Translations under genes and position numbers: made by a program
Notes under the pieces: model-generated
The model's input: the letters and a program-made list of their open reading frames with translations, nothing else
What the model was told of the DNA's origin: nothing
Databases searched by the model: none
NCBI RefSeq assembly: GCF_024502345.1
Contig: NZ_JALDNN010000001.1
Reading direction: 5' to 3' (one strand)
Length of the DNA: 64,000 nucleotides
From: Escherichia coli
GTDB taxonomy: Bacteria; Pseudomonadota; Gammaproteobacteria; Enterobacterales; Enterobacteriaceae
Shown here: positions 2,906 through 52,506 of the stretch, in pieces
How the letters are laid out: each line of letters starts with the position of its first letter
Position numbering within the stretch: the first letter of the stretch is position 1

Positions 2906-2940
2906 TGCCGGATGGCGTTTAATCGCCTTCCGGCAGTTTC
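2906..2940 (+). terminator. Putative rho-independent terminator after pepD
   Basis: GC hairpin tgccggatggcg/tcgccttccggca followed by a T-rich run just after the pepD stop. Confidence 0.4.
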
Positions 2941-2948
2941 ATCCTTCA

Positions 2949-26299: not shown

Positions 26300-26762
26300 C
26301 GCGCTCGCGCAGCAGCCAGTAAGTCACCCCGAGCGCCAGCGTAGCACCTGCGAGCGCGGCGATCTTGCCGGGGCTCGCCTCGGGGTCGAGGATCACGAAC
26401 TTGCGCGCCAGCGCGATCAGGCCGATGAGGATCACCGTCTTGACCTGGATGATGCTGTCCCGACGCAGCGCCACGCGCACGATGGAATGCTTGAATTCCA
26501 TGGCGATGAGCAGCGTCATGATCATGGCGAACACGGTCTGGAAGACCTTGTGATCAAGCGGATTGAACGCGTCGAGGATCAGCAGCGTGAAGACAATGGA
26601 CATGAGCTGGAGCAGCGACACCACGATGATCACGGCGATCACCGCAGACAGCACGAGCGCGATGACCTGCTCGAAGCGCTCGTAGAACGTCATCACGGCC
26701 CATTGGGCGCGAAAAGTTTTCGTCAGCGTAGGTTGCTTTTCATTCATCGCCATTTCCCTCAA
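26259..26762 (-). CDS. psiE: PsiE-family inner-membrane protein (phosphate-starvation-inducible)
   Basis: 167-aa multi-pass membrane ORF with a PsiE-like hydrophobic pattern. Confidence 0.75.
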   Translation of the reverse strand: MREMAMNEKQPTLTKTFRAQWAVMTFYERFEQVIALVLSAVIAVIIVVSLLQLMSIVFTLLILDAFNPLDHKVFQTVFAMIMTLLIAMEFKHSIVRVALRRDSIIQVKTVILIGLIALARKFVILDPEASPGKIAALAGATLALGVTYWLLRERDDRTAGERSDDQS

Positions 26763-27610
26763 TTTACATTGGCAACCATAACTTGGTTGCGCCCTTGTCT
26801 TTTTGCCTGGTAGAGCGCGCTGTCCGCCTGCTGCATCACCTGCTCGGAAGAGTTTAAGCGGACGTCGAGGGGAGCCACCCCCATGCTGGCGCTATAGCTG
26901 ATCGACACCTCTCCACACACCAGCGCTGTCGCCGCAACGTCCTGACGAAATCGCTCCGCCCATACTTGGGCGTCTTCTATCGATGCCGCTTCCAACAACA
27001 CAGCGAATTCCTCCCCCCCCCCAATCCGTGCAGCCATGTCGGTTGCGCGAACATGTTCCCTCAACCGTGAAGCAAAGTGCTTGAGCACCTCATCGCCGCA
27101 TCCGTGCCCATAGGTATCATTGATGCGCTTGAAGTGATCGATATCGCAGAGCACAAGTGCTGCTTGTATCTCCGGGCTGCGTTTGAGGCGCGCCCATTCC
27201 AGCTGTAATCGTTCGTTAAAAGCCCGCCGGTTCGACAAGCCGGTCAAGGGGTCGGTGATCGCCATGCGCAGCAACCGCTGCTCCATTTCCTTGCGAGAAG
27301 AGATGTCGAGCAGAGTGCCCACCATCAATTGCCTGCCCGTGTCACCCAGCCAACGACCGCGATCCAGCACCCAAATCCAAACGCCGGATCGATGACGAAC
27401 GCGGTACTCGCACTCCAATCGCTCCGACGGATTTTCTTGGTAAGCGCGCACCTTTGCCAGAACGACCGGTAAATCCTCCGGATGAATACGCGCTTGCCAT
27501 GCGGCATGGGTGGCGCCAATCTCCTCGTCGGAGGTCAAGCCGAACATCGCCAGACTGCGGGCAGAAAGCCTGAAGCTGTCGGTGGCAAGATCCCACTCCC
27601 AGAATCCCAA
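26759..27610 (-). CDS. PAS-GGDEF protein, putative diguanylate cyclase
   Basis: 283-aa ORF with GGDEF-domain signatures (RIGGGEEF active-site motif, DHFKRIND) after an N-terminal PAS-like region. Confidence 0.75.
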   Translation of the reverse strand: MGFWEWDLATDSFRLSARSLAMFGLTSDEEIGATHAAWQARIHPEDLPVVLAKVRAYQENPSERLECEYRVRHRSGVWIWVLDRGRWLGDTGRQLMVGTLLDISSRKEMEQRLLRMAITDPLTGLSNRRAFNERLQLEWARLKRSPEIQAALVLCDIDHFKRINDTYGHGCGDEVLKHFASRLREHVRATDMAARIGGGEEFAVLLEAASIEDAQVWAERFRQDVAATALVCGEVSISYSASMGVAPLDVRLNSSEQVMQQADSALYQAKRQGRNQVMVANVN

Positions 27611-29586: not shown

Positions 29587-30342
29587 TTAGTCTGAGGTGC
29601 CCGGTGTCGTCAATTTCTTCACCCGCTTTCTCATCGATTCGCCCTTGAGGTTGATCCGATAAGCGTTGTGCACCAGGCGGTCGAGGATGGCATCGGCCAG
29701 GGTTGGATCGCCGATCAGTTCGTGCCAGTTGTCCACGGGCATTTGGCTGGTCACGAGGGTCGAGCGCTGGCCGTAGCGGTCGTCCAGTAGCTCCAGCATG
29801 TCGCGGCGCTGTTCGGCGGTGAACGGCGCCAGGCCCCAGTCGTCGAGGATCAGCAGGTCGGTCTTGGCGTAGCTGCTCATCAGCTTGGCGAAGCGCCCGT
29901 CGCCGTGGGCTAGGCCCAACTCTTCCAACAGGCGCGGCAAGCGCAGGTAACGCACGCTGTAGCCCTCTCGGCAGGCCTGGTGTGCCAGGGCGCAGGCCAG
30001 CCAGGTTTTACCCACGCCAGTCGGACCGTTGATGATCAGGTTGAGTCCGTCGCGCAGCCACTGGCCGCTACCCAGTTGCAGGATCAAGCCCTTGTCCAGC
30101 CCGCGCGGGGCACGGTAGTCGATGTCTTCGAGGCAGGCGCTGTGCTTGAGCCGGGCCTGGCGCAGGCGGCTGCTGAGGCGCTTGTCGTCGCGTTCGGTCA
30201 GTTCGCGGTCGACCAGCAGGCCGAGGCGTTCCACGAAGCTCAAGCTGTCGATGTCCGGGGTTTTCAGTTGCTCGGCGAGTGCCTTGAGCATGCCGGTCAG
30301 GCGCAGGGTCTGGAGCTTGTCCAGGGTCGGATGGGGCAGCAT
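29587..30342 (-). CDS. istB: IS21-family helper ATPase IstB
   Basis: Start MLPHPTLDKLQTLRL... (cat at 30340-30342); Walker [12 protein letters not shown]. Confidence 0.85.
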   Translation of the reverse strand: MLPHPTLDKLQTLRLTGMLKALAEQLKTPDIDSLSFVERLGLLVDRELTERDDKRLSSRLRQARLKHSACLEDIDYRAPRGLDKGLILQLGSGQWLRDGLNLIINGPTGVGKTWLACALAHQACREGYSVRYLRLPRLLEELGLAHGDGRFAKLMSSYAKTDLLILDDWGLAPFTAEQRRDMLELLDDRYGQRSTLVTSQMPVDNWHELIGDPTLADAILDRLVHNAYRINLKGESMRKRVKKLTTPGTSD

Positions 30343-30359
30343 GGTGGGATTCCTTGTGT

Positions 30360-31874
30360 TTAGTGGTAGTAGCCGGGGCCGCGCAGGTTGGCGTGGTCGT
30401 CCGGCAGCAGGGGCAGGTGCTGCTGGGCCAGCGGCAGATTTTCCAGCCCCTGGCGCAGGATCGATTCGAGGCTCTTGTAGCTGCACGCACCGAGGCTGAG
30501 GGCGCGACGGCAGGCCAACTCCAAGCACACTTCGCCATGGGTCTTGCCCAGGCGCAGGATGCCCAGGCAGGCCCGGTAGCCTTGGGTTGGGTGGATGCGC
30601 CGTTCGAGGATGTGGCTGATCACGCCGGCCGTGTTCGGCCCGGTCTGCTCAGCCCAGCGGATCAGCCGTTGTGGCGTCCACTCGGCGTGCTCGCGATGGC
30701 TCTTGGGCATGTGCTCGGCCTGTGTGCTGTGCCGGCCCTTGTGCGGTGAGCGAAGGTGGCTGGCCACCCGCTGATTGGCGTGGAAGCACTCCACCGTGCG
30801 CGCTGTCAGGCGTACTTCCAGTTGTTTCTTCACCAGTTGGTACGGCACCGAGTAGTAGTGCCCATCGACCTCGACGTGGTAGTCGATGTGCACCCGCGCC
30901 TTCTTCCACTCGGCATAGACGTAGGGCTGCTCCGGCAGTGGGCGCAGCGCTGGACGATCCAGGGCTTCGAAGGCCGAGTGCCGGGAGCCCGGCAGCTTGC
31001 GAAACGGTCGTCGGTTGAGCCGCTCCAGCAATAAGGCGATGGCGCTGTTGAGTTCGTCCAGGGAGAAGAACTGGCGGTTCCTCAGCGCGGCGAGGATCCA
31101 GCGCTCGACCACCTGCACGCCGACCTCGGCCTTAGCCTTGTCGCGCGGCTTACGCGCCCGCGCCGGCACCACCGCCACGCCATAGTGCTCGGCCAGATCG
31201 CGGTAGCTCGGGTTGATGTCCGGCTCGTAGCGATGGCTCTTACTCACCGCGCTTCGCAGGTTGTCCGGCACCACGATCTCCGGCACACCGCCGAGAAAGG
31301 AGAAGCAGCGGGCATGTGAGCCCAGCCAGTCAGGTAACTGCTGCGACCAGGTGGCTTCGGCGAAGGTGTAGCTGGATGCACCAAGCACCGCGACGAACAC
31401 CTGCGCCTGGCGGATCTCGCCGCTGTGGCGGTCGATCACCGGCACCGTCTGCCCGGCGTAGTCGACGAACAACTTCTCGCCAACGCGATGTTCCTGGCGC
31501 ATCACCACGTCCAGCTTGCCCTGCCAGGCTCGGTAGTGCTCGCAGAACCAGCTGTACTGAAAGCCTTTCGGCTGGCTCAGGCGATACTCCTGCCAGAGCA
31601 GCGCCAAGGTCACGCCCGGCCGGCGTAGCTCGGCGTGGATCATGGCCCAATCGGGCAGCGGTCGTTGCTCGGAGGGTACCGCCGCCGGTGGCGGGAACAG
31701 CTGCTGCTCCAACTCCGCATCGGACAACGAACAGGGCCAACTGAGGCCGCTGGCGGCAAAGCGACAGAGGTAATCACCGGCACTGCTGTGGCCTATGCCC
31801 AGACTGCGGGAGATCTTACGGACAGACAGCCCGCAATCGAACTTGAGGCGCAACACCTCACGGATTTTACGCAT
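30360..31874 (-). CDS. istA: IS21-family transposase IstA
   Basis: Start MRKIREVLRLKFDCGLSVRKISRSLG... (cat at 31872-31874); HTH then DDE region; the track ORF extends upstream into trx. Confidence 0.85.
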   Translation of the reverse strand: MRKIREVLRLKFDCGLSVRKISRSLGIGHSSAGDYLCRFAASGLSWPCSLSDAELEQQLFPPPAAVPSEQRPLPDWAMIHAELRRPGVTLALLWQEYRLSQPKGFQYSWFCEHYRAWQGKLDVVMRQEHRVGEKLFVDYAGQTVPVIDRHSGEIRQAQVFVAVLGASSYTFAEATWSQQLPDWLGSHARCFSFLGGVPEIVVPDNLRSAVSKSHRYEPDINPSYRDLAEHYGVAVVPARARKPRDKAKAEVGVQVVERWILAALRNRQFFSLDELNSAIALLLERLNRRPFRKLPGSRHSAFEALDRPALRPLPEQPYVYAEWKKARVHIDYHVEVDGHYYSVPYQLVKKQLEVRLTARTVECFHANQRVASHLRSPHKGRHSTQAEHMPKSHREHAEWTPQRLIRWAEQTGPNTAGVISHILERRIHPTQGYRACLGILRLGKTHGEVCLELACRRALSLGACSYKSLESILRQGLENLPLAQQHLPLLPDDHANLRGPGYYH

Positions 31875-32046
31875 GGACAAACGCTCCACGACGACCTCTC
31901 TGCTTCGAAAAAGAGGTCGATGGTAGTGAATAAATCCTGCGTAGCTGCCTGCCTGGAAAGTGTCCGGATGGCCGTGGAATCGGTGTCCGGATGCTCGTGG
32001 AATAAGTGTCCGGATCAGCGTGGAATCCGCACAAATCCTGCATCGG

Positions 32047-32487
32047 TCAGCGTCCCACCTGTGCAGAGGCCCAGCGCACGATGTCCTGCGAGCCCATGGC
32101 GCCTGCCTGGCGGGCGATCTCACGTCCGCCCTGGAACAGGGCGAGCGTCGGAATGCTGCGGATACCGAACTGCGCGGCCAGGTGGGGCTCAGCCTCGGTG
32201 TTCACCTTTGCCAGCCTGATCCCGGGTTCGAGCTGGCGCGCGGCTTGTTGAAACTGCGGCGCCATCATCTTGCACGGCCCGCACCAGGGCGCCCAGAAAT
32301 CGACCAGCAGCGGCAGATCGCTGCGCTCCACGTGGCGCGAGAACGTCGCCGTCGTCAACTCGATGGGCTCGCCGGTGAACAAGGGCTGCTGGCAGCGGCC
32401 GCAGTTGGAACGATCCGCGAGCTTGGCGGCCGGCACGCTGTTGATGGACTGGCAATGTGGGCAGACGATGTGGAGTTCATTTTTCAT
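32047..32487 (-). CDS. Thioredoxin with N-terminal zinc-finger extension (Trx2-like)
   Basis: 146-aa ORF with CPHC...CGRC N-terminal cysteines and active site WAPWCGPCK. Confidence 0.85.
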   Translation of the reverse strand: MKNELHIVCPHCQSINSVPAAKLADRSNCGRCQQPLFTGEPIELTTATFSRHVERSDLPLLVDFWAPWCGPCKMMAPQFQQAARQLEPGIRLAKVNTEAEPHLAAQFGIRSIPTLALFQGGREIARQAGAMGSQDIVRWASAQVGR

Positions 32488-33628: not shown

Positions 33629-33720
33629 GTCCTTTAGGGTTGTCCGCCCAGGTGAGTGGACCCGGGTGATTGGATATGTTGATTTTCAAAGATGATCTTA
33701 CGGTTTGGTTTTTCACGCCC

Positions 33721-34332
33721 TTACCTCTGACGCGCTTTGCGCAAACGCCAACTAAGAAGCAAAAGAGTCATACCGAAGATCGCAGCATGGAAACCCAATA
33801 CCCAGCCCGCGGCCAGAAATGATTCGATCGGGCGGGTAAAAAACATCCATAGGATGATCGCACCGAGGAGCACGGAAAGCAGCCCGCTGAGGGCAAGCCA
33901 GATCTCGCCCTTGATTTCCCGGCGCAGACGAACGGCGGCGGATATCTCCAGCATACCGGTGAAAATTGCCCAGAATGCCACGCTTACCCACAAGAAATAG
34001 GCCAACGCCAAAGTGGCAGCCAGAGGGGCAACTACCACAACGACACCGGTGAGTATGCCGACGATGCCGCTGAACAACAGCCAGCCCCAGCGCTGCTTTT
34101 GCCGCATTTGCCGCACCGCTGCAACCAGGTTGAACGCACCATTGACCAAAGAAAATGCGCCGAACACTATCGTCATGGCGAACAAAGCCGAGTGTGGCAT
34201 CCAGAATGCGAGGACTGCAAAAATCAACGCGAATATGCCGCGCAGCGCAAACAACCACCAATTTTGGGTCAGTGAACACACGGCATCGGCAGGGTTATCC
34301 GCATTCGAATCGGCGATGGTATTTGCATTCAT
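33721..34332 (-). CDS. hdeD: HdeD-like acid-resistance membrane protein
   Basis: 203-aa ORF with six hydrophobic segments typical of the HdeD family. Confidence 0.7.
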   Translation of the reverse strand: MNANTIADSNADNPADAVCSLTQNWWLFALRGIFALIFAVLAFWMPHSALFAMTIVFGAFSLVNGAFNLVAAVRQMRQKQRWGWLLFSGIVGILTGVVVVVAPLAATLALAYFLWVSVAFWAIFTGMLEISAAVRLRREIKGEIWLALSGLLSVLLGAIILWMFFTRPIESFLAAGWVLGFHAAIFGMTLLLLSWRLRKARQR

Positions 34333-34417
34333 GCGATATCTCCTTGATGGATCATGAGATCAGGAAAATCAAGCCTTCATCGCGAAGAGAGGGGCTATTC
34401 GCCCCTCTCTTGCGGTT

Positions 34418-35305
34418 TTAGAACAGCTTTGACAGTCTCGCCTTGATTTCATCGAGCCAGCCTTTTCCGCTCCCGCCTCCGGCCGTCTTTTCCTTGACTT
34501 TCTTGAGTTCAGAGTACAGGGGCTCAAAGTCCTTCTTTTTGCCATAGCCCAGCAGTTCTGCCATTTCCAACTGCTGCCGGGCTTCGTTTAACAAGTCCTG
34601 CAGGCGTTCACCGGACGCCTCGCTGCGCTGGCCATCTTCTGTCAAGGTCTCGGCGCGCTTGACGAGCAGTTTGGCGCGCAGGATGGGCAGCGGGATGACG
34701 CTGAGTGTCTCGACGAGCGTGCCGAGCGCCAACTGCAGCGCGGCCTTGGCCTCTTCGATCTTGCCCTGATCGATCAGCGGCACGACGGATTTCACGGCTG
34801 CCGGGTAAGTCGCCAGAGGGATGTTGGTGACCGCAATCACGATTTCGCTGGCCAGCAATGCCAACACGCGACGAGCGCGTTGCACCTCGCCATGTTTGAG
34901 GGCATCCAGCGCCTCGTCAGTCATCGCCTCAACGGTTTCCGTGTTGGCGAACAAGTCGTGCACGATGGTGCGCACATCAACGGGGGCCAGGGCGAGCGTG
35001 GGTTCGCGTGCAACGATCAGCTCCAGCTTTCCCGTCACTTCGGCCAGCGTTGCCAGTGCTCGCGCGGATTCTTTTTCGTCCAGGGCCGCCAGCGCTGATT
35101 TGGTCAGCGCCAAGGCCGAGACGGCCTCATCGAGGACTTGTTTACGTTTGTCTGCCGCTTGCGAGTCCGTTTCCTTCTGAACCTCAGGCTGTACCTCCGT
35201 GACGACTTCAGGCTTGGGCTCTGGTCTGGCAGGAAGGCTGCTTACCGCGGCCTGTTCGTTCGTGCCTTCGTTGATCGCGTTGGGATTCGATGTTTGCTCA
35301 TTCAT
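34418..35305 (-). CDS. yfdX: YfdX-family periplasmic protein (copy 2)
   Basis: 295-aa ORF sharing blocks with the neighbouring YfdX copy (LAREP..ALAPVDV, LPLPILRAK, LLGYGKKKDF). Confidence 0.8.
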   Translation of the reverse strand: MNEQTSNPNAINEGTNEQAAVSSLPARPEPKPEVVTEVQPEVQKETDSQAADKRKQVLDEAVSALALTKSALAALDEKESARALATLAEVTGKLELIVAREPTLALAPVDVRTIVHDLFANTETVEAMTDEALDALKHGEVQRARRVLALLASEIVIAVTNIPLATYPAAVKSVVPLIDQGKIEEAKAALQLALGTLVETLSVIPLPILRAKLLVKRAETLTEDGQRSEASGERLQDLLNEARQQLEMAELLGYGKKKDFEPLYSELKKVKEKTAGGGSGKGWLDEIKARLSKLF

Positions 35306-35407
35306 GGTGATATGCCTCGTATGAGATAGTGAAAATAGGGGAATCTATTGGGGCCGACTGCGAATATCGCGAGACTGACCGATGGAGCAGTCGGCCCCTT
35401 CATCACC

Positions 35408-36322
35408 TCAAAACAGCTTTTGGATGCGCGTCTTCAACTCGTCGAACCATCCATTGCCGCTTTTGCCACCAGCCGACTTTTGCTCAATGGACTTCACCTG
35501 ATCGAAGATGGGTTTGAAGTCCTCCTTCTTGCCATAACCCAGGATTTGCGCCAGCTCGATCTCCGTGCGCACGGACGACAGCAAGGTGCTGAGCTCCTCG
35601 TTCTGCTTGGCATCGCGCTTGTCAGTCTCGGCCAGCTTTTCAGCTTTTGCCATCGCGGCTTCGGCCCGTAGCACGGGCAGAGGGAGTACAACTTGGGTGA
35701 CCACCAGCGTGTTCAGTGCTCGGGCGAGTTCCGCCTTGGCGTTGTCGATCTTGCCGCTGTCGATGAGCCGTGCGGCCGACTTGATCGCTGCCGGGTACGT
35801 TGCCATCGGCAGGTTGTCGGTTTCGATCACGATTTCGCTGGCAAGATTGGCAACAATGGGCCGTGCCTTTTGCACCTCGCCATCATCCAACAACTCCTGA
35901 GACAACTTGACCGCTTTCTTGACCGATTCCACGTCGGCGTGGATGTCATGGGTGATGACGCTTACATCGACGGGCGCCAAAGCAATTTTTGGCTCACGCG
36001 CCAATACCAGTTCCAGCTTTCCGCTGGCCAGTTCCAGCGCAGCGAGCGCCTCCTTGGTCTTCTTTGCATCAAGGAGGATCAATGCCTCATGGGTCTTGGC
36101 CAGCGCAGTGATTGCATCTTGGGCGAGTTCGGCGCGCTTCTTCGCGGCTTCCCGGGCGACCTTGTCATCTACCTGTGGCAGCGCCGCTTTGGATGCGGCA
36201 GAGGGTGCTGCAGCACCTGGGCTAGAACCTGCCGCCGATTGGGCCAGAGCCGGTCCGCTCAGTCCGACGACGACCGCCAGGGCAAGTGCGGAGAAGATGT
36301 ATTGTGGCTGTTTGATATTCAT
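35408..36322 (-). CDS. yfdX: YfdX-family periplasmic protein (copy 1)
   Basis: Start MNIKQPQYIFSALALAVVVG... (cat at 36320-36322) with signal peptide; paralogous to 34418-35305. Confidence 0.8.
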   Translation of the reverse strand: MNIKQPQYIFSALALAVVVGLSGPALAQSAAGSSPGAAAPSAASKAALPQVDDKVAREAAKKRAELAQDAITALAKTHEALILLDAKKTKEALAALELASGKLELVLAREPKIALAPVDVSVITHDIHADVESVKKAVKLSQELLDDGEVQKARPIVANLASEIVIETDNLPMATYPAAIKSAARLIDSGKIDNAKAELARALNTLVVTQVVLPLPVLRAEAAMAKAEKLAETDKRDAKQNEELSTLLSSVRTEIELAQILGYGKKEDFKPIFDQVKSIEQKSAGGKSGNGWFDELKTRIQKLF

Positions 36323-36343
36323 GATGTTGGACTCCAATTGAAG

Positions 36344-36802
36344 TTAATTGACTGAAATTTCAATCTGTTTCGGTTTGGCTTGCTCGGCCTTGACAAGCCG
36401 CACTTCCAGCACGCCGTCTTTCATGGAAGCCGTCACCTTGGTCGGATCAACGTTGTCAGGCAAGACAAAGCTGCGCACAAAGCGGCCATACGCACGTTCG
36501 ATGCGGTGGAACTTCTTGCCCTGCTCCTCTTTTTCCAGTTTGCGCTCGCCGCTGATGGTGAGCACACCGTTTTCCGCGCTGACGCGCACGGCATCCTTGG
36601 GGACCTCCGGCAGATCCAGCTTGAGGAGGAATGCGTTCTCATCCTCGCTGATGTCCACCATTGGTGCCCAGTCCGCCGTGGTCATGGCTTCGTTGCCGGT
36701 ACGGGCGCCCTGTCGCTGGGGTGTCCGTCCCAACATCGTCGCCAGGCGGTTTTGCAATTCATCCAGTTCCCGGAAGGGGTCCCACGGAGTCAATGCAGAC
36801 AT
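36344..36802 (-). CDS. Small heat shock protein (Hsp20/alpha-crystallin family)
   Basis: Start MSALTPWDPFRELDEL... (cat at 36800-36802) after AAGGAG; alpha-crystallin domain (GVLTISGERK..., GVLEVRL). Confidence 0.85.
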   Translation of the reverse strand: MSALTPWDPFRELDELQNRLATMLGRTPQRQGARTGNEAMTTADWAPMVDISEDENAFLLKLDLPEVPKDAVRVSAENGVLTISGERKLEKEEQGKKFHRIERAYGRFVRSFVLPDNVDPTKVTASMKDGVLEVRLVKAEQAKPKQIEISVN

Positions 36803-36896
36803 ATCGGTTCTCCTTGAACAATGCCGGTGAATTGGATGACGCACCGAACAGAGCCGCCGGCTCACTCTGAATAGCGCCTATTACTTTTCGTTTCTA

Positions 36897-38231
36897 TCAA
36901 GAACAGGCCATGAGCAAGAATAGTCCATGAAGCAATAGCGCATGTCCCATCTCGTGATAGGCCACGGTTTCCCGCTCCTTCGGATTGAGCACACGGTTCT
37001 TCCTTTCCAGGCCGGCCACGATGCGCTCGATGGCGGCGGTGAAGTCTTGCAGCTCCACAGCCTGCGCCTTGCGCCGCGTCGCGTTCAGCGCTGCTTCGTT
37101 CACGAGATTGGCCAGATCAGCGCCGGAAAAGCCGGTGGTCAACGCCGCCACCTGTTCCAGATCTACACCGTGGGCCAGGGTGATCTTCTTGACATGGACC
37201 TTCAGGATATCCAGGCGACCTTTCTTGTCGGGACGGTCCACCAGCACCTGACGGTCGAAGCGACCGGCACGAAGCAAGGCCTGATCGAGGATTTCGGGGC
37301 GGTTGGTGGCGGCGAGGATGATCAGCCCGACCGAGCTGTCGAAGCCATCCATTTCGGTGAGCAACTGGTTCAGCGTCTGCTCACGCTCGTCGTGTCCGCC
37401 GGTCGGTCCTCCGACACCGCGTGCGCGGCCCAAAGCATCCAGCTCATCAATGAAGATGATCGCCGGCGCCTGCCCGCGCGCCTGCTCGAACAGGTCGCGC
37501 ACGCGCGCCGCACCCACGCCGACGAACATCTCGACGAACTCCGAGCCTGAGATGGAAAAGAACGGTACCCCGGCCTCGCCCGCCACGGCCTTGGCCAGCA
37601 GGGTCTTGCCCGTGCCCGGCGGGCCAACCAGCAACACACCTTTCGGGATGCGCGCGCCGAGGCGGCCGTAATCCTGCGGGTTCTTCAGGAAGTCGACGAT
37701 TTCGACCAGCTCGGCCTTGGCCTCATCGACACCCGCGACATCGGCAAAGGTGACGCCGGTGTTCTTCTCCATGAACACCTTGGCGCGGCTCTTGCCGATG
37801 CTCAGGAAGCCGCCCATGCCCTGCTTCTCGGCGAAGCGGCGGAACAGGAAGAACCAGACGCCGAAGAAGGCCACCGCCGGCAGAATCCAGGAGAGCACAT
37901 CACGTAGCCAGGTGCTTTCCACCACCCGCGCGTAGGGCACCTCGTACTTGGACAGCCGCTCGGCCAGGTCGGGTTCGACGCGAGTGGCCACGATGGTGGT
38001 CTTGCCCCGGCTGTCCGGCGATTTCAGGCGCCCGGTGACCGTGCGGTCCGACACCAGCACTTCGGCGACGCGCCCCTCGGCCAGCGCCTTCTCGAATTCG
38101 CTGTAGGGCACGGGCTCGACGGTCTTGGCCGCCTGCCAGTAGTTCTGCAGCGTCAGCAGCAACAGGCCGGCGACGATCCAGTAGCCAATGTTCCATTGAT
38201 CTTTCTTTTCCATGGGCAATGTTCCTCGCAA
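36897..38231 (-). CDS. ftsH: FtsH-like AAA+ protease, C-terminally short (ends about 20 residues after HEXXH)
   Basis: 444-aa ORF with TM N-terminus, Walker A GPPGTGKT, Walker B IIFIDELD, then AYHEMGHAL and an early stop. Confidence 0.75.
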
Positions 38232-38240
38232 GTCGTGCCG

Positions 38241-39701
38241 CTAGAGAATGGGGGTGAACAGACGGGCCACCCCGTCGCGCAAGCGCATGGCCAGCGGGTG
38301 GGCGCGCAACGCCTTCGCCGATATCTCGCCCGACACATCACGAGCGGCATCAAAAAGGGATGACAGCCGCGTAGACAACGCGGTGTCGTACACCTCCACA
38401 TTGAACTCGAAGTTGAGGCGCAAACTGCGCGCATCCCAATTGGCCGAACCCAGGCAGCACCACGCTCCGTCTACCAGCATCAGCTTGCTGTGGTCGAACG
38501 GGCCAGGCCGTTCGAAGATGCGCACACCGTGCTCCAGCACCTGCCAGTAGTGGGCGCGCGCGGCCCATTGCACCGTGGGATGGTCGCCGTTTGCGGGCGT
38601 CAGCACGTCGATACGCACGCCGCGCAACGCGGCCGTGCTCAGCGCCGCGATCATCGGCTGATCGGGGACGAAGTAAGGTGTCCAGATGCGCACCGAATGC
38701 TTCGCCGCGCTCAAAGCGCCCATGAAGGTCCAGCGCATCCGGTCCAGGGCCTCGTCGGGACCGGCCTCGATGCCGCGCGCCCAACTGGTTCCCGGCTCAT
38801 CAGCCGTTACGGGCGGTTCGCCCCAGAAACCCTCGTTGAGCCGCTCGCCCGTGGTATCGCACCAATCATCGGTGAAGCTCCGCATCAGATGCTCCACCAC
38901 CGGCCCGCGCAGACGAAAGTGCAAATCGTGACAGGCCTGGTCCGGCGCATCGGGCCGCCAGTACGGGCTGAAGATGTTCAATCCGCCGGTGAAACCCGTC
39001 TCGCCATCGATCACCAGCAGCTTGCGGTGATTCCGCAGATGCGCGGCATGCAGGCGCGCGGGAATCAATGTCGGGTTGAACGTCGCCGCCGGAACGCCGG
39101 CGCGCTGCAAGGCGCGGTAGGCGCTGCGGGGCGTCCAGCGGGCATACACGTCGTCGATCAGCACCCGCACTTGCACGCCGCGCTCATGAGCCCGGCGCAG
39201 CGCATCGACGAACTGCGCCCCGATGCCTTGGCTGTCGAAGATGTACGAGGTCAAGGCGACGCTGTACCGCGCCGATTCGATGGCGGCGAGCATGGCCGGG
39301 TAGGCCTGCTCGCCATCGACAAGCGGCTCGATGCGGTTGCCGCCGGTCAGCGACTGGCCGGTGGCGCGTCCCACCAGGTGGGCCAGACCGGCAAGTGGCG
39401 GCGATACAGCCTCGGGTATCGTGGGCGAGAGATCCTGCCGAACAGCAGGATCTGCCCCCGGGAAGAGCCGCCGCGCCCGCCGCTGGTAACGGTTGATGCC
39501 GAACAGCCCATACAGCAGCGAACCGCCCAGCGGCAGCAAGGCGATCAGCAGTACCCACAGCGTGGCCGATCGAGGGTCACGCTTGTAGATGACCGCATGC
39601 CCCGCTGTGGGGATAGCGACCGCCAGCGACACGAGGGTGGCTGCCCATGTCAGCCCATTGGGGTCGGACACGACAGCCTCCCATCGCTCAAGATTCGCCA
39701 T
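38241..39701 (-). CDS. cls: Cardiolipin synthase / phospholipase D family
   Basis: Start [11 protein letters not shown]... (cat at 39699-39701); two HKD motifs (HRKLLVIDGE; HSKLMLVDGAWCCLGSANWD). Confidence 0.8.
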   Translation of the reverse strand: MANLERWEAVVSDPNGLTWAATLVSLAVAIPTAGHAVIYKRDPRSATLWVLLIALLPLGGSLLYGLFGINRYQRRARRLFPGADPAVRQDLSPTIPEAVSPPLAGLAHLVGRATGQSLTGGNRIEPLVDGEQAYPAMLAAIESARYSVALTSYIFDSQGIGAQFVDALRRAHERGVQVRVLIDDVYARWTPRSAYRALQRAGVPAATFNPTLIPARLHAAHLRNHRKLLVIDGETGFTGGLNIFSPYWRPDAPDQACHDLHFRLRGPVVEHLMRSFTDDWCDTTGERLNEGFWGEPPVTADEPGTSWARGIEAGPDEALDRMRWTFMGALSAAKHSVRIWTPYFVPDQPMIAALSTAALRGVRIDVLTPANGDHPTVQWAARAHYWQVLEHGVRIFERPGPFDHSKLMLVDGAWCCLGSANWDARSLRLNFEFNVEVYDTALSTRLSSLFDAARDVSGEISAKALRAHPLAMRLRDGVARLFTPIL

Positions 39702-42543
39702 CCGCTGACTTCTTCTTGCGCGCAGGCTTGCTCGCGTCGCCAGGCGGTGCCTCGGCCACGTCCGCGGCATCGGGCTTTTCAGGCTCAGCCGACTTCGCGG
39801 GTGGCTCCTGGCGCTCGAAGACCACCCGTTCGGCCTTGTCGTCCCAGCGGGCGTTGGCGTGATCACCCTTGCCGATACCGCCACCCAGCATCTCGCGCGC
39901 CAGCGCGGTTTCCAGCTCGCTGCGGATCAGCCGCTTGAGCTCACGCGCGCCGAACTCGGGCTTGTAGCCTTCCTCCGCGAAGTGGTCGATCAAGGTCTGA
40001 TCGAAGGTCAGCGTCACGCCCTGGCTGGCGGCGTTGCGGGCCACACGATCAAGCTGCAGGCCGACGATATGGCGGATTTCCTCCTTGCCCAGCGCATGGA
40101 AGACGATGATCTCGTCGATGCGGTTGATGAACTCGGGGCGGAAGTGTCCGCGCAGCACGTCCATCACCTCGGACTTGGTCTTCTCGTATTCCTCGCCGGC
40201 GGCGCCACCGGCCTTCAGCCGACGCTGGATGATGTCCGAGCCCAGGTTCGAGGTGGCGATGATGATGGTATTGGTGAAATCCACCACCCGGCCCTTGCCG
40301 TCGGTGAGCCGCCCGTCGTCGAACACCTGCAGCAGGATGTTGTAGACGTCGGGGTGCGCTTTTTCGATCTCATCGAGCAGCAACACGCTGTAGGGCTTGC
40401 GACGCACCTTCTCGGTGAGCTGGCCGCCCTCGTCATAGCCCACATAACCCGGAGGCGCGCCCACCAGGCGTGCCACGGCATGGCGTTCCCCGTACTCGGA
40501 CATGTCGATGCGCAGCAGCGCACCTTCATCGCCATAGATGGACTCGGCCAGCGCCTTGGCGAGCTCGGTCTTGCCCACGCCGGTCGGCCCAAGGAACAGG
40601 AAAGTCGCCACCGGCTTGTCGCCTTCGCGCAGGCCCGCGCGCGACAACCGCACGGCATCGGCCACCGCGCGCACCGCTTCGTCCTGGCCCACCAGGCGCT
40701 CATGCAGCCGCTGCTCCAGATGCAGCAGCTTCTCGCGTTCTTCCACCGTCAGCTCGTTGACCGGAATGCCGGTCAGGCGCGAGACGATCTGCGCGACATG
40801 CTCGGCCTTGACTTCGGCGCTGCCCGAGGCGCGCTCGCGTTCCCATTCCTCGACGAGCTGCTTGAGTTCAGTCTCCTTGGCCTCGATGCGCTTGCCCAGC
40901 TCGGCGGCCTTGTCGTACTGCTTGCGCGAGGCCATGTAGTCCTGCTCACGCCGCAACTGGTGCAGTTCGGACTCCAGCTCCTGCACCGCCACCGGGCGAG
41001 CCGTGGCCGACAGCTTCACGCGTGCGGCCGCCTGGTCAAGCAGGTCGATGGCCTTGTCAGGCAAAAAGCGCGCGGTGATGTAGCGGTCCGACAACTCGGC
41101 GGCGGCGATGATCGCATCCTCGGTGATGCTGACCTTGTGGTGCGCCTCGAAGGTGTCGCGCAGGCCGCGCAGGATCATCATGGTCTGCGCTACCGTCGGC
41201 TCGGGCACCATCACCGGCTGGAAACGACGCTCCAGCGCGGCGTCCTTCTCGATGTACTTCTGATACTCGTTGAGCGTGGTGGCGCCGATCAGGTTCAGTT
41301 CGCCGCGCGCCATCATCGGCTTGAACACGTTGGCCACGTCCAGCCCGCCTTCGCCGCCACCCTGGCCTGCACCGACGATGGTGTGCACTTCATCGATGAA
41401 GAGAATCATCTCGCCCTGGTGCTCGGTCACTTCCTTGAGCACCTTCTGCACGCGCTCCTCGAACTCGCCGCGATACTTGGCGCCTGCCACCATGGCGTTG
41501 ATGTTGAGCTCGACCAGACGCTTGTCGCGCAGCGTCTCGGGCACTTCACCGGCGACCATGCGCTGCGCCAGCCCTTCGACAATGGCGGTCTTGCCGACGC
41601 CGGGCTCACCGATCAACACCGGGTTGTTTTTCTTGCGCCGGGCCAGCACCTCGATGGTGGTCTCGATCTCCTGCGCACGGCCGATGACTGGATCGAGTTT
41701 GCCCTCGCGCGCCATCTTGGTGAGGTCGCGCGAGTATTTATCCAGCTCGGGCGTGTTGGTCGGCGTCTCGGCGCGGCCATCCTCGGCCCCTTTGCCGACC
41801 ACCTTGCTTACCTGCTGGCGCAGCGCTTGCGGCGTGAGGCCGTAACGGCGCAGCAGGTTGGCCGCCAAACCTTCGCCTTCCTCAGCGAGCCCGATCAGGA
41901 AATGCTCCGGCCCGACATAAGAGTGGCCGAGTTCGTTGGAGGCCACGAAAGCGCGGCTGAGCGCGTCCTTGACCCGGGGCGACACGCCGACTTCGCCCTC
42001 GAACGGCTTCTCGCCGCGCTTGGCTTCGGATTCGATCTGTCGCTTGAGGTCATCGACCTTGATCTTGAACTGTCCCAGGATGGTCTTCACCACGTCGCTG
42101 TCGGATAGCGCCAGCAGCAGGTGTTCGGTATCGACTTCGGCGCGCCCGAACTCTGCAGCGTGTCGGGCGGCCTCCTGCAATAGGGCCTCGGACTGTTCGC
42201 TGATACGGCTGGCGAGCCCACTGCCGCGACGGCGCGCAGTGCCCGTACCGGCCGGGGCGGGTTCGCCGAACGAGGCATCGACCACCTCGTCGGTATCGGC
42301 CGCCATGGACGGCGAATCGTCACCGATGCGGAAGAAGTCGCTGCCGAGGAAGTCTTCGAACAAGCCGCTGCGCGAGCCAAACAAGGCTTCCAGCGGCGAG
42401 ACGGTGCGCTTTTGCTGGCGCGCCAGTTGGCGATAGTGATCGTCACACAACAGCATGGTGCTGTGGCGACCATTGAGATTGGCTTCCACCCGCACCGTGG
42501 CGGGCTGGCCGCAGACCTGGCATTGTTTTCTGGCCATGCTCAT
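39688..42543 (-). CDS. clpK: ClpK/ClpG-type AAA+ disaggregase (ClpB-like with N-terminal zinc-binding domain)
   Basis: Start [17 protein letters not shown]... (cat at 42541-42543) after GGAG; two AAA+ modules (GEPGVGKT and GPTGVGKT). Confidence 0.9.
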
Positions 42544-44659: not shown

Positions 44660-46497
<1,838 letters not shown>

Positions 46498-46505
<8 letters not shown>

Positions 46506-48000
46506 TCCATCTTCCTATCAATCGAATGAACGCAGTGGTCAGTGGTGCCACCCTGCTTTTTTCCAATCCACAACGCTTTTCCAGCTCCCAGCGCCTAGAC
46601 GTTATGCCTGTCTGTACATCCTTCAGCATCGCTGCAGTCAGGCGACGGATCTGATACTCGCCGACGGACTCGGCATAGCGATCCAGGAAGGTGCAGCAAA
46701 GAGGCAATTGATCGAGACGGTGCTCGACTGATGCCCGATGGGGTAGCTGCTGCAGGAACCAGTTGCGACTCCTGCGCGGAAGGCCCAGGTCTTCTTCGCT
46801 ACCTCTACCAATCCGGATCAGCAGGCGCACCAACCTTATGTCACGCGCTCGCCAGTCGATGTGGCTGTTGTTGCCCTGTCGGCGCTGCCTGACCTGGTTC
46901 GCAACCATCAGCCAGTGTCGGTCATGACGATAGAGCCAGGCGTAACATGCCCCTGCTCCGTCTTGCCTGGCTGCCTTGGCTCCACCGTGATTAGCCAGTG
47001 CTTGCAGCCAAATGGCTCGGTACTGCTGCTTTTGCTCAAACTCAGCAGGGAGCAGCTGCACTGACCGCTCGGAGGCAAGGTCGACCTGGCGAGTCTTCGC
47101 CTCGCTGATCAGCTCGCCAGCATGCTGGCCAGGGCGCAGGCTGGTCCAGACGATCAGATGCTGCAGCGCACTGAATCCCTTGCGATGCTTCCTGAACATC
47201 GCCAACAGCCAAGGTGGAGGCTCTCCGGATGTCAGCAGACCGTTCGCAGCAAGCCAATCCCTTTGATGGGATGCCAGGATCTTCTCCCAGATGACTTCAG
47301 CCCTGACCTGCCGGCCTCGCCTGGCGCCGCACTCTGTAGCCAGGTACCGGTACAGGTTGGTCCAGCGTCCGTAGCCAGGCGATTGCACCTCTTCGAGCGC
47401 CAGCAGCTGCATAGCAGCCTTGGCGAGCCTGATAGCCTCTTCGCCCACGGGACTCACGCGAAGATCACGGGGCAGAAACAGTGGAGAGGCTGTATGAAAC
47501 TCGTGCCGCTGCGCTCGACGGAACGGGATAGGTGAGTTCAGGAGCTGACAGCCATGCTCGGGACAGGCATCTATCCCTTGAATCTGCCAGCTGCGCCGCC
47601 AGTAGGGTTCACCGTAGCGCGCAGCCATATCTTCAAAGCAGATCGGGCAGTAACGCAGCCAATCGGGCCACTTGACCAAGGCCGTCGAGGCCCCAGACAG
47701 ACCAATCGTCGGCCGGTCGGGAGCAAGCATGGCCTGAAAAAGATCGGTACGGCGCTCCGGCGGAATGAAAGGGGCATAGAGCGGGAACAGCGTGTGATTC
47801 AGGATCATGCCTTCCGCATCCAAGCCCGTGTTGTTCGCCAACGCAGTCAGGTGTGTGGGCAGATCGGTGATCGCGGCAACCTTGCTGTCACCGAAAAGCA
47901 TGTGCAGCAAGGTCTTGTGGCTGCCTATCCCCAGATGTACCCGGCACCGGGCAATACCGCTGTAAAGCAGTTCGTCCGGGTAGAGCCTGGGGAAGTACAT
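46498..48000 (-). CDS. tnsD: Tn7 TnsD/TniQ-like target-selection protein
   Basis: 500-aa ORF MYFPRLYPDELLYSGIARC...; zinc-finger-like RYCPICF...CPEHGC; FRKHRKGFSALQHLIVW and YAWLYRHDRHWL blocks. Confidence 0.8.
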
Positions 48001-48001
48001 G

Positions 48002-49612
48002 TCAGCTCGCTCTCAGCAGAGGCCGTAGATCGAGGATCAAGCCAGCCTGCTTGAATCTGTCATAGGCCTCGCTTTCAGGCCCATCGGCATAACGTCGGCG
48101 CAGATCCTCCTCGGATAGGCACCCCCACTCCGTCCGCTTAACTCTGGAAATGCCGGGCCTCTTGGGAGCGTCCTGCGCGAGGTAGGCCGTGGCCTTGTGA
48201 ATCAGGGCCGCCAGCGGGATGTCCGGATTCTCCGCCAACAATTCATCGGCCATGGGAATGGCGATGTCCCTCGGGATTTCCATACCTTCGAGCAGGGCGG
48301 CCAACCGCTTTGCCTTGTCATCAGCCGGAGGGGCCGGTGGTTTAGGTTGGGGGACGCTATCCAGAGAGCGAGTCAGGGTCAGCAACCGTCCCTCGATCTC
48401 TGGCATCAGCAGGTCGTCATATTTGGCGATCAGCTCGGGCCTACCGCTCCGCAAGGCCGCCAGCATCGGATGGACCGGTTTGAACTCGTCCTCGAAAACC
48501 CTGCGCAGCAACAGCGGCTTAATGCACTCGACACCTGTCACTATCGCCCGGATCTGCGCCAGCGCGAACAGCTTGATGACGATGTCCATGACCCCTTGGG
48601 TGAGGTCGTACATCGTAGCCTCCAGTTCATCATCCAGCGGCGCCGCATTTCGCAGCCACTGATACTTCCAAAGCCGCTTCAACAGACGCTTCCAATGCTC
48701 GTCCCGAGGCAACCTATCCCAGCGGATGCTGCCCAACCCGGAGACCCGCCGAGCAGCCCGGAACGTGCGCTGGAAGAACTTGCTGGCCCGGTGGGTGCCG
48801 ACCTGAATGATCGGAACACCGATGGTGTTCACCAGCGACACGAAGAAATTGTGCATTTTTTCGGCACCACCGGAGCGTGCCTCGTTGAGGTTCTGAACCT
48901 CGTCGATGATCAGCACTCCGAGCGTGTGCAGATTGGCCAGCTGGCACATGGATGCCAGCAGACGTTTGGTACCCAGCTTCTTGCGTCCGTGGCTACGGCT
49001 GTAGTGGGTACCCAGGATCTTGTCTACTTCGTTGAAGAAGCTCAGGCACAGCTCATCCAAGTCACCGTCAATTGGGCAGTCGATCTTCAGGTAGACCAGT
49101 TGGGTGATGTCGTAATCAGGGTGATGGAGAGCTTGGGGGTACATGCCCAGAATCCGCTCCAGCGTGCGCGTCTTGCCGCAACCGGAGCAGCCGAACAGCG
49201 ACAGGCTGTTGGCCGTAGAGGAGACACTCTGGTACACCGCCGCATCCAGATCCTCCTCCTCGACACGGCGATAGCCATTCTGCAGGTGCGCATACCAGGC
49301 ACCGCTGGCCGGATTCCGACCGATGTACCCTTGACGGATCATCAGGCTGATCTTGCTCTCCAGCTCCAAGTGATGGCTCAGCGGCTGGAAGAAGCCGTGC
49401 AACAGGCGGGCAATCGCATGTGCCCTGAGCCGACCATCCAGAAGCGCCTCCTGCGGCTCGAAACCGGGAAGCTGCTGCAATAGATCGACCACCTCCTGCA
49501 GATCAGGAATCGGAGGCAATGCGCTGATGAGCGGATTGTCCTGATACTCGGGAAGCTGCTGCTCCTGGTAACGCGCCAGGGGAATGACTCCGCGCTGGAA
49601 TTCTTCAGTCAT
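48002..49612 (-). CDS. tnsC: Tn7 TnsC-like AAA+ transposition regulator
   Basis: 536-aa ORF with Walker A GCSGCGKT and Walker B LIIDEVQNL. Confidence 0.85.
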   Translation of the reverse strand: MTEEFQRGVIPLARYQEQQLPEYQDNPLISALPPIPDLQEVVDLLQQLPGFEPQEALLDGRLRAHAIARLLHGFFQPLSHHLELESKISLMIRQGYIGRNPASGAWYAHLQNGYRRVEEEDLDAAVYQSVSSTANSLSLFGCSGCGKTRTLERILGMYPQALHHPDYDITQLVYLKIDCPIDGDLDELCLSFFNEVDKILGTHYSRSHGRKKLGTKRLLASMCQLANLHTLGVLIIDEVQNLNEARSGGAEKMHNFFVSLVNTIGVPIIQVGTHRASKFFQRTFRAARRVSGLGSIRWDRLPRDEHWKRLLKRLWKYQWLRNAAPLDDELEATMYDLTQGVMDIVIKLFALAQIRAIVTGVECIKPLLLRRVFEDEFKPVHPMLAALRSGRPELIAKYDDLLMPEIEGRLLTLTRSLDSVPQPKPPAPPADDKAKRLAALLEGMEIPRDIAIPMADELLAENPDIPLAALIHKATAYLAQDAPKRPGISRVKRTEWGCLSEEDLRRRYADGPESEAYDRFKQAGLILDLRPLLRAS

Positions 49613-51692
49613 CCTCTTCCTCCTTGAATATCAGGTCACTGAGATCTGGGAAGGCATAATCTTCCTGCTTCTCGCCCCGCAGTGGGATCACCTCGGCTGG
49701 CTTTTCCTGCTGTGCTTTATCCGGTTTGAATGCTGTTTTCTGGCGTTCCTGGCGCTTTTCCTGCTGCTTGTTCTCGCGGATCTGGGTTCCCAGATCCTTC
49801 GTGGTCATACCCGTTTTGAGCGGACTGGCATCCTCTGCCTGGGCAACGATGGACTCGATCTGCTTCAGAAGATTGCCTCTCTCTACCAAAGCTTCCGCCG
49901 CCGCGTTGGTATCGCTACGCCGTTCCTCTCTGGACAGCAGCCAGACATCCCAGAAGGTCATCCCCCTGAAGCGTCGACTGCGGTCGGCAAGATCGCAAAC
50001 CCAGTAGTCCTTGAGACTATTGGACGGCCGCAGGTAGATGTGGTCGGCGCTACGCGGATCGTATGCGACCGTTACCCCTGTCGGCCGGCGCCCCTGGCCT
50101 CGGTGAAACCAACCCTCCCTGATTGCTTCCTGGCAGGTGTAGAAGCAGCCGAACAGTCTGATTCCCAGCTCCGAAACCGTGGCCGACTCATGGGGCAAGA
50201 GATTTATCCGCACCAGCTCCTCGGGCGCAGTACGTAACCGGCCGGTCAAGTTGGCCAAGCCCCAGTTCCACAGCATGACCGGGATGGCTGGCAGATCGCC
50301 CGGCATACCAGAGGTTCTGTCGTATTTGCTCAAGGTATGAAAGTTGTTGTGGTAGAGGATGCCGGCAATGATGATCTGGGTGAACTCGGGCAAGGTCAGA
50401 CTGGCATCAAGTCTGTAGTCGTGGCCACCCCGCTTCCGGCTGGTGGTGTCCTCGACCACACCGCTGGCATAGGGCTTGAAACGCTCCTGCACCGTCCGGA
50501 AATAACGCTCGACGATCCCCTTGGCATCTCCTCGCCTGGCCGGTGCATTCTCGATGCGAACGCCGAAGGCTTGGGAAAATGCTTCCACCTTGGTGCCATT
50601 CAGTTCGCCCTTATCGGCCAGCACCACATCCGGCAAGCCTTTGACCGGCCAGTCGCTGGCATCGATCTCCACGCTATACTGGCGGCAATACTCAACCTTG
50701 TCGGCGACCGTGTTGGCCAATGCCACCATGGCACTGACCCAGGAAGGTCCCTCGAATCCGACGTACATACCAACGACCATGCGGCTGAACACGTCGATCA
50801 CCATGTAAACGACAGGCCTGCCGACGATAAGGCTGCGATCATGTTCTGAAACCAGATAGATATCGGCGATGGTGGCATCGATCTGGTAGCGGTATCCTGG
50901 CCCCAGTGCCTCGGTCGTCGATGTACTGCTGAGCGGTCGGAAGTCCTTGGCAAAATCCACTGCGGACACCCTGCATGGCAAGGTGTCGGTGAAGTGATAT
51001 TCGCGCCCATAGAAGTAACGGAACTGCCCCAATGTAGGCAGTTCGGAGGTCGGCAGCTCCGTCAGAACAGCACGGAGCAGATTCAGCCCGGCGGCGTAGG
51101 CATCAGGAATGGACGGATGTTTTTCCTTGAGCAAACGTTCCTCGATGACCCGGCGAAAAATGCGCTCGATGTCCGGCGTGACATTGCTCCCTTTCCCCTC
51201 CATCACCACTCTGGGCCTGCCCAGCTTGGCCTGGTTCGGCTTTCTGCGCTTGCCACGGGCGCCCGAGTTGACATAGTCCGGCAAGAGGGCATTCCTGCAC
51301 ATGCCTCGCTGCCAGTAGCGCCTCAGTAACCTATACACCGTCTGATTGGTGACACCATGGCGCTCCATGATGCCTCTGACAATGAGCCCTCTGGGGCGCC
51401 GCACGAAAAGCTGGGGGTTGTGCACAAAATCCGCCAGCATTCCCCAAGCTTCATCACGCTTCTGCTGATCAAGGGAACCTTCCTCAACCTCCCGTAGGAC
51501 TGTTTCCTCGAAGGGATCGGCAATGCTCTCCAGCTCCCGCTCCATGATCAGACGCTCCAGCTCTACAATCGATATCGGTTCGGGCAACGCCGTGTCCGAA
51601 TCGATATCGATCCAGATTGCCTGCTCGGTACCGGACCAAAGCAGGCGCTTTCGCAGTTCCCCCATCCGGAACACCTGATTAACGGGCAACAC
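49605..51692 (-). CDS. tnsB: Tn7 TnsB-like DDE transposase
   Basis: 695-aa ORF with YQIDATIADIYLV, VLADKGE and GIVERYFRT blocks matching the Tn7 TnsB catalytic region. Confidence 0.9.
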   Translation of the reverse strand: MLPVNQVFRMGELRKRLLWSGTEQAIWIDIDSDTALPEPISIVELERLIMERELESIADPFEETVLREVEEGSLDQQKRDEAWGMLADFVHNPQLFVRRPRGLIVRGIMERHGVTNQTVYRLLRRYWQRGMCRNALLPDYVNSGARGKRRKPNQAKLGRPRVVMEGKGSNVTPDIERIFRRVIEERLLKEKHPSIPDAYAAGLNLLRAVLTELPTSELPTLGQFRYFYGREYHFTDTLPCRVSAVDFAKDFRPLSSTSTTEALGPGYRYQIDATIADIYLVSEHDRSLIVGRPVVYMVIDVFSRMVVGMYVGFEGPSWVSAMVALANTVADKVEYCRQYSVEIDASDWPVKGLPDVVLADKGELNGTKVEAFSQAFGVRIENAPARRGDAKGIVERYFRTVQERFKPYASGVVEDTTSRKRGGHDYRLDASLTLPEFTQIIIAGILYHNNFHTLSKYDRTSGMPGDLPAIPVMLWNWGLANLTGRLRTAPEELVRINLLPHESATVSELGIRLFGCFYTCQEAIREGWFHRGQGRRPTGVTVAYDPRSADHIYLRPSNSLKDYWVCDLADRSRRFRGMTFWDVWLLSREERRSDTNAAAEALVERGNLLKQIESIVAQAEDASPLKTGMTTKDLGTQIRENKQQEKRQERQKTAFKPDKAQQEKPAEVIPLRGEKQEDYAFPDLSDLIFKEEEDD

Positions 51693-52506
51693 TGCTCAGC
51701 TCCTGATGCATTTGATGAGAGTTGGCAACCAGGTCTTTCGGCTTCAGCTCCCGGTAAGGAGTGTCAAGATCGAAAAGGAAACAGTGCCGGGCCAGCAACT
51801 GGCGTAGCCAATAGAGCGCCTGACCGGCCTCCAGCTGGCCGGAGGTATCCAGTCCTTGGGCAATAGCGGTCAGCTTCCGGTCTGGGTGACGCTGAAACTC
51901 GAGCAGAAACAGCTGCTGGTAATGGGCGAGATCGTCCTGAGCGATGTCGCCTTCAGCATGGGCAGGATAGAGCCATTGGATATTGGCAAATGCCACCTTG
52001 GATACCTCGCGCTCCGTAACGATGACCCAGGGAATACCTTTTTCCTGCCAGTAGCGCCTTTCAAGCTCAAGCCTCTCGATAACTTCAGGCTTCTGCAGGT
52101 CGGTACTGTACTTGGCCTGAATCGCGATGCTCGGGCGCTGAGGATCTTCGAAATCCACCAGAAAGTCGCTGGTCAGTACCTGCGGGGTACCCTTGTAACA
52201 ACCGTGGGGCAGGCCAAGCTCCTCGGCGATGCGCACCGTATCTTCGACCCGCATCGGAAACTGTTCACGGATATCGGTGACATGGGGAGACCGATCCAAG
52301 GTCAGGAAGATGGCCAGTTCAAGATCGGATAGAAGATGGTGTAAACGCCGGGTCTTGCTGCCAGGCAGGCGGTGGGAGCGACCCAGCGAGGACACGTCCC
52401 TTGTGTAGATGAACGGCTTGTAGTCTGATCCCTGGCCTTGACCACGCCCGTCCTTGAGCCTTCTATCGATCTGGGCCTGGGTCAGCCCCTTGAATGTTCC
52501 AGACAT
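51679..52506 (-). CDS. tnsA: Tn7 TnsA-like endonuclease
   Basis: 275-aa ORF MSGTFKGLTQAQIDRRLKDGRGQGQGSDYKPF...HHLLSDLELAIFL...TSDFLVDF...AIQAKYS; sits just inside the right transposon end. Confidence 0.9.
   Translation of the reverse strand: MSGTFKGLTQAQIDRRLKDGRGQGQGSDYKPFIYTRDVSSLGRSHRLPGSKTRRLHHLLSDLELAIFLTLDRSPHVTDIREQFPMRVEDTVRIAEELGLPHGCYKGTPQVLTSDFLVDFEDPQRPSIAIQAKYSTDLQKPEVIERLELERRYWQEKGIPWVIVTEREVSKVAFANIQWLYPAHAEGDIAQDDLAHYQQLFLLEFQRHPDRKLTAIAQGLDTSGQLEAGQALYWLRQLLARHCFLFDLDTPYRELKPKDLVANSHQMHQELSSVAR

Follow-up and report, generated by a model that had tools for sequence, protein, structure and literature searches.

A truncated ftsH-GI in an Escherichia coli tLST island is probably a pseudogene remnant left by an internal deletion of its protease domain

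The FtsH-GI protein (PaFtsH2) of the tLST / TLPQC heat-resistance island was reportedly described by Kamal and colleagues in 2019. This xenologous FtsH2 has been studied in Pseudomonas aeruginosa clone C (PMC8290217; PMC10850787). In E. coli, FtsH-GI is not known to add to stress tolerance, and strains with a truncated ftsH-GI resisted heat about as well as those with an intact one (PMC8290217). Damaged copies of the gene are on record from several islands. Truncated ORFs of both cls and ftsH are conserved in one island lineage (PMC5347186), E. coli AW1.7 carries a 901-bp internal deletion in ftsH (PMC5514686), and the AW1.7-type remnants, annotated as orf5 and orf6, are regarded as dysfunctional (PMC8407380). 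A 2025 survey (PMC12603250) lists 'minor deletions in ftsH' for tLST2a-c, an insertion sequence named ISPa85 between trx and kefB for tLST2c, and the loss of the whole of ftsH for tLST2d; tLST2c is further marked by a lack of orfC and orfD and by a duplication between kefB and orfE. Together, tLST2b and tLST2c made up about 9% of its 111 tLST-positive E. coli, and several hundred genomes of ST399 and ST635 are cited there as carriers of these two variants.

The window analyzed here is a stretch of 64,000 nucleotides from E. coli. By its sequence and position, the truncated gene in this window is ftsH-GI, which in its complete form encodes the xenologous protease PaFtsH2 of this island. The gene order is a helix-turn-helix regulator, sHSP20, clpK, cls, ftsH-GI, hsp20-GI, yfdX1, yfdX2, hdeD, orf11, and trx-GI, followed by an IS21 element and then by kefB, GGDEF, psiE, htpX-like, and degP-like genes. 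The slot of ftsH-GI between cls and hsp20-GI within the clpK to degP row matches the RefSeq-annotated window-type locus (L001), the locus on plasmid pECO-6357 (L002), and a locus with an Achromobacter-type allele (L005). Like full-length FtsH-GI, the window copy combines membrane, periplasmic, and AAA+ parts, with residues 1-426 being 97% identical to the 609-aa alleles. In contrast to them it lacks residues 427-609, and with these the M41 chamber and the third zinc ligand. With its ftsH deletion and an IS21-family insertion separating trx-GI from kefB-GI, the window island fits tLST2c, an assignment made from the published description only. Truncation of ftsH is thus already on record, both in annotation and in print; the present analysis adds the precise junction and the mosaic origin of the gene. 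Junction, filler, frameshift, and mosaic structure are not given in the main text of PMC12603250. Coordinates of all features are collected in Table 1.

Table 1. Features of the truncated ftsH-GI and its surroundings, in window positions
Feature	Position	Strand	Remarks
IS21-family element	~29587-32123		istA and istB above NCBIfam cut-offs; between trx-GI and kefB-GI
hsp20-GI (small heat shock protein), downstream neighbor	36344..36802	-	RefSeq annotation; same orientation
Spacer of 94 bp, ftsH stop to hsp20-GI	36803..36896	-	Native ftsH 3' end and native intergenic sequence
Last 25 nt of native ftsH-GI, kept out of frame, with new TGA	36881..36905	-	Alignment to L002 9582-9606
Longest ORF of truncated ftsH-GI	36897..38231	-	444 aa from TTG
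Truncated ftsH-GI ORF, probable pseudogene remnant of the tLST FtsH protease	36897..38213	-	438 codons and TGA at 36897-36899
Filler of 31 nt at the deletion junction	36906..36936	-	ATTGCTTCATGGACTATTCTTGCTCATGGCC on the gene strand; identical in L001, L003, L004
'Old' block linked to the deletion, gene nt 961-1281	36933..37253	-	98% to L003 and L004; 81-87% to sampled full-length alleles
Native ftsH-GI nt 1-1277 (codons 1-426)	36937..38213	-	97% aa identity to 609-aa allele residues 1-427
5' mosaic block, gene nt 1-640	37574..38213	-	99-100% identical to full-length L005 (Achromobacter-type P0001), by sliding identity
In-frame upstream extension to TTG (longest-ORF start)	38214..38231	-	Unlikely to be the true start
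cls (phospholipase D-type cardiolipin synthase), intact upstream neighbor	38241..39671	-	RefSeq; TIGR04265 289.2 bits

The ATG at 38213 is the likely start of ftsH-GI, giving a product of 438 aa. It is preceded by a GAGGAA at a distance of 8-13 nt, and the RefSeq feature begins at this codon, as do the full-length alleles. Pfam searches with the 438-aa product identified FtsH_ext (PF06480) at residues 16-101 (E = 9e-10), AAA (PF00004) at residues 199-332 (E = 6e-45), and AAA_lid_3 (PF17862) at residues 356-398 (E = 2e-15), and a hydrophobic segment lies at residues 105-128, in line with an N-terminal membrane anchor. The AAA+ module is complete, with an undamaged Walker A motif (197-204), MFVG pore loop (229-232), Walker B motif (252-257), and second region of homology (303-320). 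The HEXXH motif is present as HEMGH at residues 420-424 (window 36942-36956). A complete M41 domain with its third zinc ligand is absent; Peptidase_M41 (PF01434) was matched over positions 1-21 of 191 only. The original prediction, made from the letters of the window and their ORFs, had described a TM region, a full AAA+ module, and HEMGH followed by an early stop, and both the Pfam domains and the motifs bear this out. On the NCBIfam FtsH equivalog profile TIGR01241, the truncated product scored 595.5 bits over profile positions 8-432 of 598 and so falls just below the cut-off of 600 bits, compared to 779.2 bits over positions 8-598 for the full-length 609-aa allele. For the identical ftsH-GI of E. 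coli ABWA45, RefSeq gives the tag 'incomplete; missing C-terminus', which is a pseudogene label. The predicted product cannot be a zinc protease.

To locate the lesion, we mapped the gene against the full-length 609-aa allele on plasmid pECO-6357 (L002). In this alignment, window 36200-36905 pairs with L002 8907-9606 and window 36937-38400 with L002 10135-11598; 528 bp (gene nt 1278-1805, codons 427-602) are exchanged for the 31-nt filler. The retained native codons 1-426 encode the two membrane segments and the periplasmic domain, followed by the AAA+ module and its lid and by the initial M41 helix with HEMGH. The net loss of 497 bp shifts the reading frame, so that truncated ftsH-GI combines a deletion with a frameshifted end, with 12 foreign residues after L426 and then a stop inside the retained native 3' end. 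The view that the 3' part is absent rather than frameshifted was accordingly correct as to the absence (528 bp reduced to 31 nt), with the refinement that the frame is shifted as well. Similarly, the end of the product comes early after HEMGH, as had been noted, but after 14 residues and not about 20, the first two of which (A and L) are native and the last 12 foreign. The foreign tail is strongly hydrophobic. The product falls 183 native residues short of the 609-aa allele, where roughly 200 including the third zinc ligand had been estimated. The lost part contains D497 of the full-length allele, which aligns with D500, the third zinc ligand, of Thermotoga maritima FtsH. The full-length allele itself aligns end to end with solved FtsH structures. 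A protease domain could still have been encoded further downstream in another frame, but no remnant of the missing 182 residues (428-609; tblastn) or of the missing 528 bp (blastn) was found in any frame across the whole window, the sole match to the missing part being the final seven native codons at 36884..36904, which are not in the reading frame of the ORF.

The filler has a GC content of 45%, compared to 64% for the ftsH-GI gene. Its nt 7-22 (16 nt) are repeated 23 nt downstream, across the boundary between filler and native sequence. Apart from this internal 16-nt repeat, no second copy of the filler was found in the window or in any locus fetched. We considered the filler as the scar of an insertion sequence and found no support for this origin; the repeat pattern instead suggests slippage or template switching during repair.

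The junction is shared by many genomes. Four complete E. coli genomes (ABWA45, C 236-04A, LR536430, and G3/10) match the window at 100% identity over a 2-kb region around it, and the exact 438-aa protein occurs on 188 contigs, where it is deposited under names such as 'FtsH-2 peptidase'. A 171-nt junction probe, counted when it was matched whole, in one piece, and at 99% identity or more, was found in 10 E. coli genome records and in 20 plasmid records, the plasmids being mainly from Klebsiella. The junction was also present on a metagenome contig (L004). About 28 E. coli records carry the full-length form at the probe site. Most other records match the native half of the probe only, and the majority of these are tLST1. 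The comparison with reference heat-resistance loci, proposed alongside the original prediction, showed that ftsH is full-length in tLST2 (CP061749), tLST3a (CP010237), and tLST3b (CP061755) and truncated differently in tLST1 and AW1.7. For example, tLST1 keeps the 528-bp segment that is missing in the window, at 92% identity, and its ftsH encodes a 528-aa form (P0022) in which only the last ~80 residues are lost. The tLST1 and AW1.7 copies represent the same gene in the same island family, also inactivated by deletion in Enterobacteriaceae, but by lesions other than that of the window. The closest full-length relatives, of 601-625 aa, all contain PF01434.

Junction and filler are identical in three haplotypes, namely the window type (L001), L003, and L004. 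L003 is carried by E. coli TC24 and by many Klebsiella and Enterobacter plasmids, where it is the common form. Its ftsH is interrupted by a TAG at codon 23 and has lost 11 bp, its ribosome-binding site is weakened, and at six columns it departs from a residue shared by all of 116 full-length homologs; RefSeq labels it 'frameshifted; internal stop'. In L004, whose truncated protein (P0007) has 435 aa, there is an in-frame deletion in the AAA+ core, and two of the six invariant-column changes of L003 are common to both. The window haplotype has no added damage, with no departure at any of 182 columns invariant in full-length homologs. L004 (metagenome contig ERZ27295936 k141_4225, 2241-3800) is also a third backbone with the same junction. 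It is without cls, its order being clpK, then a 63-aa ORF, then truncated ftsH, which suggests either that the junction was transferred from one island variant to another or that cls disappeared afterwards.

The window ftsH-GI is a mosaic. Its 5' block follows a full-length allele and its 3' block, next to the deletion, follows the other two junction haplotypes (Table 1). The undamaged look of the AAA+ module is explained by this, because the 5' 640 nt are a recent block that evolved under selection within a complete gene and came in by recombination. The intactness of the window copy is therefore not evidence of constraint on the predicted stub. Branch-wise counts among the window, L003, and L002 gave 12 synonymous and 3 non-synonymous changes on the window branch and 21 and 13, respectively, on the L003 branch. 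We rejected purifying selection on the truncated gene as the meaning of the 12:3 ratio after sliding identity had exposed the mosaic. The carriage of two tLST variants in one strain is described as common in PMC12603250, and two island places per record were seen in matching genomes. Such co-carriage gives intragenic exchange its opportunity. The mosaic shows that co-resident tLST copies recombine inside genes, and for this reason an intact-looking ORF in the island is weak evidence of function. The block from clpK to cls is ~100% identical to L002. The island as a whole (~33700-41200) is a fine-scale recombination patchwork, and hdeD in the window is only 76-82% identical to all loci compared.

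Taken together, we consider truncated ftsH-GI to be a pseudogene remnant without selected function, with a probability of roughly 0.8. This rests on the decay of the sister haplotypes and on repeated, independent losses of ftsH-GI in enterobacterial tLSTs, namely the 528-aa form of tLST1, the 901-bp deletion of AW1.7, and the complete loss in tLST2d. The original prediction had left the choice between an ATPase lacking protease activity and a pseudogene, and the RefSeq label along with the further decay of the sister haplotypes favors the latter. One old deletion took out 528 bp, nearly the whole M41 domain (residues 427-602), and left the 31-nt filler, and recombination has since carried the deletion to several tLST backbones. 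Transcription of the remnant together with its neighbors is probable, and translation may yield a membrane-bound AAA+ stub of 48 kDa that ends in a hydrophobic tail. Most likely it has no selected function, and the island would act through sHSP20, ClpK, sHSP-GI, YfdX1/2, HdeD, KefB, and others. Decay of the sister haplotypes indicates that the remnant is dispensable; it does not follow that it is inert in the window lineage. The repeated loss of ftsH-GI in Enterobacteriaceae suggests that, unlike in Pseudomonas, the gene brings no benefit or carries a cost in these hosts. In practical terms, the correct entry would be 'ftsH-GI pseudogene (C-terminal deletion)' and not 'FtsH protease', and no FtsH should be counted in the protein-quality-control capacity of this island. 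Furthermore, the tLST2a-c lineage can be traced cleanly by the junction with its 31-nt filler and frameshift.

An alternative is that the truncated gene yields a selected, membrane-anchored AAA+ ATPase, acting as an unfoldase or holdase, or as a modulator that tunes the host's essential FtsH, or acts on it in a dominant-negative way, through mixed oligomers. In its favor, the ORF is undamaged in all its AAA+ motifs and preceded by a good ribosome-binding site, the gene stands in an operon-like row without a terminator, and the exact protein recurs on 188 contigs. These contigs carry one identical sequence, however, which looks like clonal spread and is silent on constraint. The excess of synonymous over non-synonymous changes on the window branch (12 versus 3), which would also point to a selected product, is explained by mosaicism, the 5' 640 nt being ~100% identical to a full-length allele. 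In addition, two of the three junction haplotypes are broken further, and the broken L003 is common on Klebsiella and Enterobacter plasmids.

The structure of the predicted stub bears on the same alternative. Oligomerization of E. coli FtsH depends in part on its membrane region, and a form without the C-terminal part might therefore still assemble. The M41 domains, however, form a stable hexameric base in solved FtsH structures, and this base is missing in the stub. Assembly of the stub is therefore uncertain, with the M41 base lost although the membrane region also helps oligomerization. Strongly hydrophobic C-terminal tails tend to mark proteins for degradation, and the new tail is of this kind. 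FtsH-type AAA+ ATPases without protease activity are otherwise known from plants, where the FtsHi proteins are inactive FtsH homologs of the chloroplast import motor. These have kept the M41 fold and lost the zinc motif, and they are conserved and hexameric. The window copy resembles them in being an FtsH-type AAA+ ATPase without protease activity, but it is unlike them in that its zinc motif is kept, its fold is deleted, and it shows no conservation. Overall, we regard a selected ATPase as unlikely. The more specific proposal, that the stub is made and kept in tLST2c E. coli of wastewater and commensal lineages, where it would work as an unfoldase or holdase or mix or compete with host FtsH, seems to us still harder to credit and very improbable. 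By mixing or competing with host FtsH, the stub would retune the turnover of sigma-32 or LpxC under stress, and on this proposal the repair of the 5' half by recombination would be a sign of selection rather than chance.

Compared to the selected ATPase, the two readings that dispute the truncation itself have next to no likelihood, and we reject both in favor of a pseudogene remnant. That the early end stems from an error in sequencing or assembly, or from a mere frameshift with the protease domain still encoded downstream, is refuted by the identical sequence in four independent complete genomes, by the same junction in 30 records and the metagenome contig, by the tblastn and blastn searches, which found no M41 sequence in the window, and by the 94 bp past the stop, which lead straight into hsp20-GI. 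A natural short FtsH-like family ending after HEXXH could call on one other protein of such form, P0007, but this has the same junction and foreign tail and is thus a descendant of the same deletion; all other close homologs have 595-630 aa (~600-625 aa for the closest) with PF01434, and the deletion is marked as internal by the survival of the final 25 nt of the full-length gene in a shifted frame.

The row of genes around ftsH-GI is operon-like. The stop of cls lies 27 bp ahead of the ftsH ATG, and on the other side hsp20-GI begins 94 bp past the ftsH stop, in agreement with the claim that the next gene starts within 100 bp. A scan of 36300-38400 revealed no promoter-like or terminator-like site between ftsH and hsp20-GI. 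Co-transcription of the remnant would follow from this place between cls and hsp20-GI with no terminator around. The cls product scored just under the TIGR04265 cut-off of 290 bits (Table 1). Elsewhere in the island, the ORF for a PAS-GGDEF diguanylate cyclase (26759-27610, minus strand) is intact with 283 aa, compared to two CDS in the near-identical island of ABWA45.

Adjoining the island is a Tn7-like set at 44883-52506 (minus strand) of TnsE-, TnsD-, presumably TnsC-, TnsB-, and TnsA-like ORFs. The names of these ORFs come from RefSeq annotation only, and no NCBIfam matches were found for the Tn7-like proteins beside the island. The same TnsD and TnsE neighbors stand beside the island on pECO-6357. 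The window differs from ABWA45 outside the island as well. For example, 1.56 kb at window 47413-48970 are absent from ABWA45, and the ORF of a type III restriction-modification endonuclease (53876-55216) has 446 aa, compared to a 3039-bp gene in ABWA45. The region at ~53900-57000 matches ABWA45 in patches, which indicates deletions or rearrangements in the cluster of helicase, methyltransferase, and restriction genes.
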